Positions 3,413 to 5,636 of a stretch of DNA of 24,000 nt are shown here, in pieces. Numbering within the stretch: position 1 is the first letter of the stretch; each line of letters starts with the position of its first letter. The notes below the pieces were generated by a model. It was not told the DNA's origin. It did no database searches and saw only the letters and a list, made by a program, of their open reading frames with translations. Position numbers and translations under genes: made by a program. Source of the DNA: Ruminiclostridium sp. (GTDB lineage: Bacteria; Bacillota; Clostridia; Oscillospirales; Ruminococcaceae). The DNA is taken from assembly GCA_017942025.1 (NCBI GenBank), contig JAGAVH010000039.1, forward strand, positions 2,290 through 26,289. The letters run 5' to 3'.

Positions 3413-3450
3413 AAAATTGCGATTTGTCGCTCCGCTTAGGGTTATTGTAG

Positions 3451-3477
3451 CCCCAATCCCCCTAACCCCCTTTCCCC
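3451..3477 (-). other. Canonical four-tract G-quadruplex motif (i-motif on the + strand)
   Basis: + strand reads CCCC AAT CCCCC TAA CCCCC TTT CCCC. - strand reads GGGG AAA GGGGG TTA GGGGG ATT GGGG, i.e. four G-runs of at least 4 with 3-nt loops. Confidence 0.7.
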
Positions 3478-3486
3478 TGATGGAAA

Positions 3487-3867
3487 TATATTTCGGCAAA
3501 ATAGGATTTTGCCGAAATGGTCGCAGTTCTGCGAACTGCTGGGGCTGGGAGCAGTCCGATAGGACTGCGTAACTTTCTGAAAATGCAATTTTCGGAAAGT
3601 ATGGGCTCGCCGCCCCTGCAGCAGTCTGAAAGACTGCGACGGTCTTTAGACCAATGACCTCTGCTTGGGGCTTCGCCCCAGCTGTCCAACGGACAGCGAC
3701 GCCCTTCAGGGCAATGAAACATCCCGTTTATATCGGCGTTTGTGGGCAATTTATCGCAATGTTTTAAATCATCAACTGTAGGGGGCGACCTCCCGGACGC
3801 CCCGCCGCCGAAAACAGTGGTCCGCATGACTGCGACCATTTTTGAAATCTTTGATTTCAAAAATATA
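3487..3867. repeat. GC-rich hairpin-dense element with structured terminal inverted repeats (MITE/BOX-like, or a large structured ncRNA)
   Basis: The two ends are inverted copies. Each has TATATTT, a 12-13-bp AT-rich hairpin (3490-3518 and 3838-3864), and an identical 13-nt core AAATGGTCGCAGT (3515-3527; reverse complement at 3829-3841). About 10 further local hairpins lie between them. The region is visibly more GC-rich than the flanking genes. Confidence 0.6.
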
Positions 3868-3928
3868 GGAATCTGCCCACGGGTGCAAACCGCCGTCAAA
3901 CCGTAAGTTATCGTTCTTTAAACAAAAA

Positions 3929-3958
3929 AGCTGAAATGCAGATGCATTTCAGCTTTTT
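3929..3958. terminator. Bidirectional rho-independent terminator (ends the HTH gene on the - strand and mreB read-through on the + strand)
   Basis: 11-bp stem AGCTGAAATGC (3929-3939) / GCATTTCAGCT (3944-3954) with loop AGAT. An A-run lies upstream (a T-run on the - strand) and TTTT lies downstream. Confidence 0.8.
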
Positions 3959-4353: not shown

Positions 4354-4815
4354 ATGGAAAAATCAAGATCTGCAAATTCAATCCGCAGCTTTGGAGCATC
4401 GTTATTGGTAGTAGGATTTATTATTACAGCGATAGTTGCTGTATCTTTCTGGATAACAGGCGCTTCAATCGAGTATTCGATAAGAAATATATTTCAGCCA
4501 ATGTTTGTCGGAATGGGCATCGGCACACTTGTAATCGGTGGTACCGTATCTGTATTTTTGTATTTTTTATTTGTTTCGTTGTCCGAAATCGTAAAAAATA
4601 CTGAAATTACCCAGCAGTATGCAAAGAAAATTTATGAATCAGGTAACGATGATGATAGTAGTAAAAATTCTGCTACAGCTTTACATAGCAATAATTCTGG
4701 TAGCTTCAGACAGCAGGCTTTATCAGCGAACAACAATCGTTGGACTTGTCAGAAGTGTAATTCACAAAATTCTTATGCAGATATGTTCTGCCAGAATTGT
4801 GGCGCAAACAAGTAA
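4354..4815 (+). CDS. Hypothetical membrane protein with C-terminal zinc ribbon (153 aa)
   Basis: RBS GGGAGG at 4341-4346. Two hydrophobic segments (ASLLVVGFIITAIVAVSFWI and MFVGMGIGTLVIGGTVSVFLYFLFVSL), a low-complexity N/S/D-rich linker, then WTCQKCNSQNSYADMFCQNCG (CxxC-x11-CxxC). Confidence 0.8.
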   Translation: MEKSRSANSIRSFGASLLVVGFIITAIVAVSFWITGASIEYSIRNIFQPMFVGMGIGTLVIGGTVSVFLYFLFVSLSEIVKNTEITQQYAKKIYESGNDDDSSKNSATALHSNNSGSFRQQALSANNNRWTCQKCNSQNSYADMFCQNCGANK

Positions 4816-4819
4816 CACA

Positions 4820-4848
4820 AAAGCTCAGATGCGGTGCATCTGAGCTTT
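4820..4848 (+). terminator. Hairpin terminator of the membrane/zinc-ribbon gene
   Basis: 13-bp stem AAAGCTCAGATGC (4820-4832) / GCATCTGAGCTTT (4836-4848) with loop GGT. The trailing T-tract is weak (TTTAAACTTTATAAT). Confidence 0.6.
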
Positions 4849-4862
4849 AAACTTTATAATCC

Positions 4863-5005
4863 ATCCGCTGAAAGCGGATACCTCAACTTCGTGCGAAGCA
4901 CGAAATATCACTTTTGCCGTAGGCAAAAATATCACACTATGCGAAGCATAGTATATCACCGAAGCCGCAGGCTTCGATATAACTGCGGCGAAGCCGCTTA
5001 ATATC
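4863..5005. repeat. Phased 24-nt array of six 7-bp/GNA-triloop mini-hairpins separated by ATATCAC linkers
   Basis: Stems start at 4863, 4888, 4912, 4936, 4960 and 4984. Loops are GAA, GAA, GTA, GAA, GCA, GAA. Linkers are ACCTCAAC, ATATCAC x3, ATATAAC, then AATATCC overlapping the LUD gene stop codon. Confidence 0.85.
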
Positions 5006-5636
5006 CCAGTTCCTCCGCAATAAAGATAACTTTTATTCTGTCCTTATCTCTCTGATGTGCCATAATTACGTAGTCATTGCAGATTCTGTCACTGCTGTTA
5101 CAATGACCACAGCGTCCTGTCATAGCGCAGGGCGTTTTTTTATTCAGTCTTATGCAGTTTGCAGGGGAGGCTATTGTTTCAAGTCTGTCTACTGCGGCGT
5201 GAAGGTCAGTTACAATTTTATTGAGGCCTGCCACAACTATAACCTGCTTGGGACCGAATATCATAGCGGCTACTCTGTTGCCGTTTCCGTCAACATTGTA
5301 AAGCTCGCCGAATTCTGTTACTGCGTTGGTACTTGTAAAGTAAGTATCGGCTGTGAACGCCTTTCTCATAAGAACGCCTACTTCACTTGCCGGAACATTG
5401 TCACGGTCAAGATAGATACCCTTGTAGTTTTCGTTAAGCCATTCCTGAATGCCTGTATCACGGAGAGTCATAGAGCCGCCTGATAAAATCATTTTATCGT
5501 CCTTTATAAGCTCCTTTATGATTTCCTTTGCCTCATCAGCGGTATCTACAAGATAGCCCTTCATATTGTTTTTTTCAAGTGCGGCGATAACCTTGCCTGC
5601 ACGCTTTTTTAATGATTCCTTTACAATTGCATCCAT
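4998..5636 (-). CDS. LUD-domain (LutC/YkgG-like, DUF162) protein
   Basis: 212-aa ORF with the typical LUD pattern (SGGSMTLRDTGI, TSTNAVTEFGELYNVDGNGNR, VIVVAGLNKIV) and a C-terminal Cys cluster CAMTGRCGHCNSSDRIC. RBS AGGAAG lies 8 nt upstream. Confidence 0.8.
   Translation of the reverse strand: MDAIVKESLKKRAGKVIAALEKNNMKGYLVDTADEAKEIIKELIKDDKMILSGGSMTLRDTGIQEWLNENYKGIYLDRDNVPASEVGVLMRKAFTADTYFTSTNAVTEFGELYNVDGNGNRVAAMIFGPKQVIVVAGLNKIVTDLHAAVDRLETIASPANCIRLNKKTPCAMTGRCGHCNSSDRICNDYVIMAHQRDKDRIKVIFIAEELGY

Follow-up and report, generated by a model that had tools for sequence, protein, structure and literature searches.

A 24,000-nt stretch of DNA from Ruminiclostridium sp. (GenBank assembly GCA_017942025.1, contig JAGAVH010000039.1, positions 2,290 to 26,289 of the forward strand; hereafter the window) carries, between the converging ends of a LUD-domain gene and a zinc-ribbon gene, an array of six tandem mini-hairpins, which raises the question of what kind of element this is and whether it is read as RNA or as DNA. 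Five of the hairpins (4863-4879, 4888-4904, 4912-4928, 4936-4952 and 4960-4976) consist of a perfect 7-bp stem and a 3-nt loop, and the sixth (4985-4997) of a 5-bp stem with T facing T at the outer position. The starts of units 2-6 follow one another at intervals of exactly 24 nt; the linker between units is ATATCAC at 4905, 4929 and 4953 and ATATAAC at 4977, while a degenerate linker, ACCTCAAC, occupies 4880-4887. All stems within the element differ from one another; the loops read, in order, GAA, GAA, GTA, GAA, GCA and GAA, and the heptamer GCGAAGC is present three times. Perfect hairpins with a 7-bp stem and a 3-nt loop occur 14 times in the 24-kb window against ~1.6 expected, five of them within 114 nt, and ATATCAC 11 times against 3.2 expected; matches to R1, a model of the unit, were confined, in the window, to the array. 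With RNA parameters the array region folded with z-scores of -8.4 (plus strand) and -6.4 (minus strand), and with DNA parameters with z-scores of -8.4 and -7.4, none of the shuffles folding equally well in either case. The array sequence is identical in eight independent public contigs and is therefore no artefact. Thus, the array is far beyond chance expectation: hairpins, linkers, loops and 24-nt phasing are as given in a preliminary description of this DNA, which had also proposed that both strands be folded with RNA and DNA parameters, a comparison that came out far better than shuffles.

To place the array among known elements, the window was searched against Rfam with cmscan. Nothing in the whole window matched at gathering threshold. 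With an E-value threshold, the array matched the Gut-1 RNA motif (RF01706) at 4900-4985 on the minus strand, over the full model (positions 1-77), with 47.7 bits and an E-value of 1.2e-8, a borderline score that falls short of the 50-bit gathering cut-off for Gut-1. One genome per GTDB species was scanned for three GTGAWAT heptamers 15-19 nt apart, and at least 120 matches were obtained, leaving at least ~106 arrays once ordinary tandem repeats had been removed; the family counts given below cover the matches listed. The preliminary description had proposed a pattern search of this kind; in the relatives of the unit thereby found, the stems covary and the linker is kept, and 19 related arrays of like anatomy exceeded the Gut-1 cut-off, with 52-79.5 bits. 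The Gut-1 consensus consists of three hairpins with GUGAAAU between them (Rfam RF01706), and some entries of the published alignment open with CAGUUAUAU and have GUGAUAU between their hairpins (Weinberg et al. 2010, Genome Biol 11:R31, PMC2864571). The window array has at least three tandem hairpins with covarying stems, separated by GUGAAAU/GUGAUAU, and a 5' lead of the form CA(A/G)U(G/U)A(A/U)AU before the first hairpin; the lead itself, CAGUUAUAU at 4977-4985 on the minus strand, is identical in BAAZ01025322 and BAAZ01000095 of the published alignment. Judged by these sequence features, the array is a one-sided, slightly sub-threshold copy of the known but unexplained Gut-1 family and no new class, so that the earlier impression that it resembled no named non-coding RNA (ncRNA) has to be revised, members of its GUGAUAU type having already been published. 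Gut-1 was reported in human-gut sequence, in no sequenced organism, and was rated a likely non-coding RNA (Weinberg et al. 2010, PMC2864571). In the literature searched, no paper dealt with its function, and no work on the motif later than 2010 was found.

The structure of the array is under strong constraint. Throughout the family, the repeat unit is a short perfect hairpin followed by a single-stranded GTGAWAT, the stem sequence being free as long as it pairs and neighbouring stems being different. Among the arrays listed, 152 of 238 distinct inter-linker segments were perfect palindromes down to the loop, and of 1588 stem positions, read on the GTGAWAT strand, 1434 were Watson-Crick, 21 G·U, 38 A·C and 95 other. 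In 65 distinct 17-nt units, 92.5% of cells paired versus 47.5% in shuffles, with 216 double-sided changes, which supports the argument of the preliminary description that selection acts on structure rather than on sequence. These units reached a covariation score of 1.055, compared with 0.205 in shuffles and 0.10-0.20 in slid controls; G·U accounted for 4 of their 455 cells, and the loop-closing pair was C-G in 53 of the 65. Close relatives differed by compensatory changes within hairpins and by swaps of whole hairpins. The commonest loops on the GTGAWAT strand (TTC, TGC, TTT, TAC, TTGC and TTAC) correspond to GNA or GNNA on the other strand. Mini-hairpins with C-GNA-G loops are far more stable as DNA than as RNA, and natural examples are found in single-stranded DNA (ssDNA) priming sites and N4 hairpin promoters. 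The near-absence of G·U pairs and the C-GNA-G loops thus follow the rules of DNA mini-hairpins and are atypical of structured RNAs, making the earlier suggestion that ssDNA may be relevant here a reasonable one; an alternative cause of purely Watson-Crick stems would be a need to fold on both strands. Across the family, unit periods between 20 and 26 nt occur, which argues against phased binding on double-stranded DNA. Minimum-free-energy folds predicted pairing between left-hand GTGAWAT and right-hand ATWTCAC linkers into a junction ladder. This pairing was rejected as the cause of linker conservation because one-sided arrays keep the linker without a partner, and because exact left-hand linkers often face degenerate right-hand ones (ATATAAC, ATACCAC).

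The anatomy of the family explains why the window copy is called one-sided. About 60% of the arrays listed are two-sided and run from a terminator-like hairpin through three to four GTGATAT-linked hairpins to a centre, TATATTCGCC..CCAAAACT, and then into a second half made of three to four ATATCAC-linked hairpins, the end motif GGCGAATATAACTG and a bidirectional terminator. The Rfam Gut-1 model corresponds to the second half of such a copy, read on the opposite strand. A second subtype has GTGAAAT/ATTTCAC linkers, the centre GAAATAAATCC and the end GGATTTATTTC, and in both subtypes the Gut-1-proper half stands between the arms of a 10-11-nt inverted repeat. One-sided copies close with a tail rich in purines (GUGAAGGAAG, GUUUAGGAGU; GUUGAGGU in the window), after which comes a hairpin or terminator. 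Some copies showed further variation: five loci (L082, L089, L091, L099 and L127; metagenome-assembled genome [MAG] JAZTZP01, SGB_6406) have a 13-15-bp AT-rich hairpin (AAATTATAGTTTA...TAAACTATAATTT) before the array, and this subtype is present in at least six copies in SGB_6406, on both sides of the thi operon and also upstream of argC. Locus L011 (~3500-3900, minus strand) holds two tandem Gut-1 copies, each preceded by a hairpin run of a second kind, in which the linkers are of the CATCAT type and the loops, on the same strand, are GNRA/GNA. A 3.9-kb contig (L056) contains three Gut-1 matches, of which two are identical and lie at opposite ends, suggesting a repeat-bounded segment or a circular assembly. 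The hosts of nearly all arrays listed were MAGs labelled as Oscillospiraceae, Acutalibacteraceae, Ruminococcaceae, Christensenellaceae or unclassified Clostridia/Eubacteriales and recovered from the guts of humans, ruminants, deer and horses. On viral contigs, ~5 of the 120 matches listed were true arrays, located beside tRNA genes at contig ends, and a phage origin was rejected on this count.

Read on the minus strand, the window copy follows the one-sided plan. Directly after the LUD stop codon (5000-4998), which adjoins the array, the sequence and its fold place a 5-bp hairpin, GCGGC-UUC-GCCGC (4984-4998), in the slot held by a terminator hairpin in most other family members. It is followed by the lead linker GUUAUAU (4977-4983), which lies within CAGUUAUAU, the 5' signature of GUGAUAU-type Gut-1 members, and by the Gut-1 core matched by Rfam (4900-4985), with hairpins at 4960-4976, 4936-4952 and 4912-4928 and GUGAUAU linkers at 4953-4959, 4929-4935 and 4905-4911. 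A fourth linked hairpin, UUCGUGC-UUC-GCACGAA (4888-4904), leads to the tail motif GUUGAGGU (4880-4887), the counterpart both of the GU(U/G)(U/A)AGG(A/U) tail that closes one-sided arrays and of GUUUUGGAGG, the centre of two-sided ones. The terminal hairpin, AUCCGCU-UUC-AGCGGAU (4863-4879), spans the right-hand edge of the segment that relatives either lack or have replaced (see below). On this strand, the stems can be extended to 10 bp by G·U pairs between UAU and GUG of the linkers. A bidirectional intrinsic terminator with a 13-bp stem, an A-run before it and a T-run after it lies at 4820-4848, giving the minus-strand order LUD stop, array, terminator with U-run. Since the array is located between the LUD stop and the only strong terminator, it would be transcribed as part of the minus-strand 3' untranslated region (3' UTR) of the LUD messenger, with GUGAUAU linkers; this placement we infer from the sequence. 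The same terminator is predicted to serve both the array-bearing LUD transcript and that of the zinc-ribbon gene. The array hairpins themselves were rejected as intrinsic terminators, being followed by GUGAUAU and no U-tract, and only 4820-4848 qualifies as one.

Comparison of the positions of family members revealed a rule. The Gut-1-proper half of two-sided copies was bordered on its outer side by a co-oriented gene or tRNA with its terminator in 47 of the 52 cases that could be scored; tRNAs, of 13 identities, made up 22 of these 47 flanks, with 0-4 nt between tRNA end and terminator. The same terminator was shared beside unlike tRNAs (Tyr in L024 and Gln in L053, Thr in L028 and Cys in L094, Gln in L096 and Arg in L110) and is therefore part of the element. 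On the other flank, 43 neighbours were divergent and 42 co-oriented. There are also one-sided copies that are sense-oriented inside operons, for example directly before the Shine-Dalgarno (SD) sequence of rbfA (L073) or before rlmH (L086), and five copies are antisense to both neighbours. The 150 neighbouring open reading frames (ORFs) fell into 154 Pfam families, with no recurrent enzyme among them. Genes for PF05635 four-helix-bundle proteins (the 23S rRNA intervening-sequence protein family) stand beside seven arrays (L012, L018, L039, L040, L076 and others); they were rejected as encoding a linked protein, having their own promoters and no second array past them. A best-match sigma-A scan upstream of 100 arrays found no consistent promoter position or score, and a TTGAAA-17-TGnTATTAT motif at the centre of some GTGATAT two-sided copies was dropped, being neither general nor matched by a GTGAAAT-type counterpart. 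A small ORF after an SD-like tail was likewise rejected, as it has only 5 codons and a non-synonymous change between strains. A group II intron is found at L127:3822-5576 (Rfam matches to D1-D4 and to domain V/VI); that a Gut-1 copy is only a few kb away is probably incidental.

At the LUD locus itself, the array comes and goes. It is invariant across the eight contigs of the window's strain cluster. In a MAG labelled Ruminiclostridium sp. with 95% LUD identity (L249), both flanks are kept and identical, the right one as GGATGGATTATAAAG plus terminator, and the space between them is filled by a different hairpin run of ~190 nt (L249:3140-3330) with GTGAAGT/GTGAAGC linkers, which the Gut-1 model scores at only 21 bits. 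Two longer hairpins follow this run, the linkers of which may define a third subtype within the family. At 92% LUD identity, a terminator follows directly after the stop codon and the array is absent, as it is at 82% and 81% identity, where ordinary terminators are found. Since relatives lack it or have another array in its place, the array is a unit of insertion or replacement that spans ~4876-4997 and no conserved part of the LUD locus. This outcome of the orthologous comparison does not bear out the role tied to the LUD/zinc-ribbon gene pair that the preliminary description had entertained, and the array says nothing specific about the LUD gene. Elsewhere, 34 of the 106 arrays listed lie within 300 nt of a contig end. 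In the MAG SGB_6406, contigs end ~141 nt, about one assembler k-mer, into the element, of which there are at least six copies, and at four loci two copies were found within 8 kb.

Taken together, these findings lead us to propose, tentatively and with a probability of about 0.42, that Gut-1 is a dispersed, structure-constrained palindromic repeat with a lifestyle like that of repetitive extragenic palindromic (REP) sequences and bacterial interspersed mosaic elements (BIMEs) or of BOX elements, the unit of which is read as a single strand by a trans-acting factor. We favor this reading because the array sits behind terminators and tRNA ends, comes and goes, is multicopy in some genomes and has no dedicated neighbour gene; it also rests on the invariant heptamer, the free but paired stems, the DNA-type loop and pair statistics and the assembly breaks. 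The hairpin-plus-heptamer unit would be recognized by a factor that spreads or maintains the element. In the LUD 3' UTR, where six stable clamps precede the terminator, the array would most plausibly form a barrier to 3'-exonucleases or a buffer against read-through, as a side effect and with no LUD-specific regulation. Several observations weigh against a repeat. Most MAGs have one to three copies, which looks low, and no transposase, integrase, HUH enzyme or reverse transcriptase was found among the 150 neighbouring ORFs. No convincing target-site duplication emerged from filled, replaced and empty sites, so that mobility is itself something we infer. Some one-sided copies have their own downstream terminator, in the manner of small RNA (sRNA) genes (L011, L055). 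Classical REP and BOX copies share stem sequence, whereas the stems here all differ within an element. Finally, a heptamer and an architecture conserved over several families could equally mean a conserved host RNA-binding factor, in keeping with the sRNA view of Rfam.

According to that view, Gut-1 is a bona fide ncRNA, either an independent sRNA or one released from 3' UTRs, in which three to six GUGAWAU copies between clamp hairpins act as a scaffold or sponge that titrates or assembles an RNA-binding protein in the manner of CsrB/RsmZ. Strong covariation combined with an invariant single-stranded heptamer is what such an RNA would show, and Weinberg et al. (PMC2864571) rated the motif a likely RNA. 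Its proponents could further point to one-sided copies with tail and terminator on the GUGAWAU strand (two in L011, and those in L055, L021 and the window), to the sense copies within operons directly upstream of rbfA and rlmH, and to the extension of stems by G·U, which is possible on the GUGAWAU strand only. However, G·U makes up ~1% of pairs and, on the annotated strand, is outnumbered by A·C (21 vs 38), the loops on that strand are UNC and become GNA/GNRA-like only on the opposite one, and neither a consistently placed promoter nor a uniform orientation to neighbouring genes was seen. With the array replaced or absent at the orthologous locus and many copies at assembly breakpoints in addition, we regard an ncRNA as a doubtful explanation, if one to be taken seriously. 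Purely Watson-Crick stems are also what would be expected if both transcribed strands functioned, as they would if arrays behind primary terminators were backstops or insulators, placed between convergent units or after tRNA operons, that halt or buffer read-through arriving from either side. The location of arrays immediately behind terminators fits this idea, as do two-sided copies, which face both incoming directions. Yet the hairpins have no U-tracts, most copies are already flanked by strong terminators, the array is missing from this site in close relatives, and the conserved heptamer and the loop asymmetry are left unexplained, making insulation the least probable of the explanations weighed here.

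The remaining alternatives assign the function to DNA. The array could be an ssDNA signal in which d(C-GNA-G) mini-hairpins and heptamer are read by a HUH/Y1 transposase, by a primase (ssi-like) or by a polymerase of the kind that uses N4-like hairpin promoters, two-sided copies presenting the signal on both strands. The C-G-closed GNA triloops (53 of 65) and GNNA tetraloops of the ATWTCAC strand and the Watson-Crick-only stems are consistent with such a signal, DNA hairpins of this type being far more stable than RNA ones and their natural examples being ssDNA priming sites and N4 hairpin promoters. The opposed arrays, moreover, recall ssiA/ssiB on opposite strands of RSF1010, and the dispersal of the family is repeat-like. 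On the other hand, the 150 neighbouring ORFs include no candidate enzyme gene, the context is chromosomal and has no genes for replication or transfer, the copies are few, and GNRA-type loops are good RNA loops too; we consider this reading unlikely. Only slightly less unlikely is a broader proposal in which Gut-1 arrays are DNA-level elements and not sRNAs, their hyperstable ssDNA mini-hairpins and heptamer being read by a DNA enzyme that would insert or exchange arrays, and perhaps adjacent variable genes, at terminators and the ends of tRNA operons. If true, Gut-1 would be a structure-addressed recombination or transposition site with deliberately unlike stems.

The genes that meet at the array are a LUD-domain (lactate-utilisation-like) gene on the minus strand (4998-5636; Pfam LUD_dom, 4.2e-52), the homologues of which carry the name 'lactate utilization protein', and a zinc-ribbon ORF on the plus strand (4354-4815). 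Strain synteny breaks just past the terminator at 4820-4848. The loop of this terminator, ACC on the LUD-sense strand and thus GGT on the plus strand of the window, is the reverse complement of that in L003/L008; the loop in L249 is GAT. A similar terminator is found at 3921-3956, and the two enclose a two-gene module consisting of an HTH_26 gene and the zinc-ribbon membrane gene. The module is missing in L007 and L251, and L003/L008 have a divergent zinc-ribbon allele; it is a strain-variable islet with palindromic terminators at its edges. Between mreB and the helix-turn-helix gene, a ~470-nt non-coding stretch (3430-3900) is dense in perfect hairpins that differ from one another and folds with RNA z-scores of -8.9 and -10.4. 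It holds the module TCATT-GNNC-loop-GNNC-GTC-GCWGTCN-loop twice, with unlike stems, and has no Rfam match. The stretch is absent in the 95% relative L249 and stands beside other genes in L002; in L007 and L251 its start abuts the terminator. A pattern scan of metagenomes returned one match, by chance, and kinship with the Gut-1 array was rejected, the linker module of the stretch being absent from all other loci. A tRNA scan of the window found none.

Several known systems were compared with the array. Clustered regularly interspaced short palindromic repeat (CRISPR) arrays, which have cas genes and unique spacers between identical repeats of 23-50 nt, were rejected because the constant part here is only 7 nt long and the variable part self-complementary, and because the window has no cas genes. 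Iterons and heptad operators were rejected on the period, 24 nt here and 20-26 nt across the family, and a type III toxin-antitoxin array, in which identical tandem repeats of ~36 nt precede a toxin gene, because the units are no sequence repeats, no tandem repeat being found here, and no toxin gene is adjacent. The linkers resemble omega-protein heptads (WATCACW), half-parS (GTGAAAC) and phiX-type nick sites (TTGATAT), each of which fits one subtype only. REP/BIME elements are palindromic units in the intergenic DNA behind genes, often in arrays within which orientation alternates; as transcribed parts of 3' UTRs they protect against exonucleases, and they have a single-stranded GTAG motif beside the hairpin and vary in presence from strain to strain. 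They have one or a few stem sequences per genome in hundreds of copies, along with a gene for a REP-associated tyrosine transposase (RAYT). Gut-1 arrays resemble them in being intergenic and palindromic, in the short conserved single-stranded motif beside the hairpin and in their variable presence. They differ in that their stems are all unlike, in copy number (one to three in most MAGs and at least six in one) and in that no RAYT (Y1 HUH) transposase was found among the 150 neighbouring ORFs. BOX of Streptococcus pneumoniae is a modular intergenic repeat of a Firmicute with pairing end modules and a middle module in variable number; it is strongly structured as RNA and is not known to have a transposase. 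The counterpart of its modules here would be UAUAUUCGCC/GGCGAAUAUA or GAAAUAAAUCC/GGAUUUAUUUC around three to four hairpins. BOX modules, however, are sequence repeats of 45-59 nt, whereas Gut-1 units are 20-26 nt long and have only linker and geometry in common.

Two further comparisons concern the molecule that would be read. CsrB/RsmZ RNAs carry many copies of a single-stranded motif on a series of hairpins, with GGA mainly in loops, and have a partner protein, their own promoter and a fixed locus. What the arrays share with these RNAs is the display of short motif copies by hairpins. The d(GCGNAGC) mini-hairpins of the G4 origin, RSF1010 ssiA and the N4 early promoters function as folded single strands and share with the arrays the C-GNA-G triloop and 5-7-bp stems; they are single sites in phage or plasmid origins of replication or transcription, whereas the arrays are chromosomal and intergenic, without such genes nearby. 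STAXI is a tandem small structure for which an ssDNA role was considered, with a pseudoknot, UUCG loops of RNA-type stability and a location near DNA-handling genes (Weinberg et al. 2010, PMC2864571); in Gut-1 the loop chemistry is the opposite, and DNA-handling neighbours are absent. The closest system is published Gut-1 itself, with which the window array has in common tandem short hairpins, covarying stems, GUGAAAU/GUGAUAU linkers and a gut-bacterial source, the lead CAGUUAUAU/CAAUGAAAU being common to the published motif and the present arrays. The window copy has five to six hairpins against the three modelled and lies in a 3' UTR. Gut-1 has been in Rfam since 2010 with a one-line description ("human gut only") and no host or function, and the published account gave neither taxon, two-sided architecture nor position rule. 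The present analysis adds hosts (uncultured Oscillospirales/Christensenellales of human and ruminant guts), an often two-sided anatomy with a closing inverted repeat, a position rule, repeat-like turnover and DNA-type hairpin rules, which together make the choice between RNA and DNA, and the search for the reader of GTGAWAT, directly testable.

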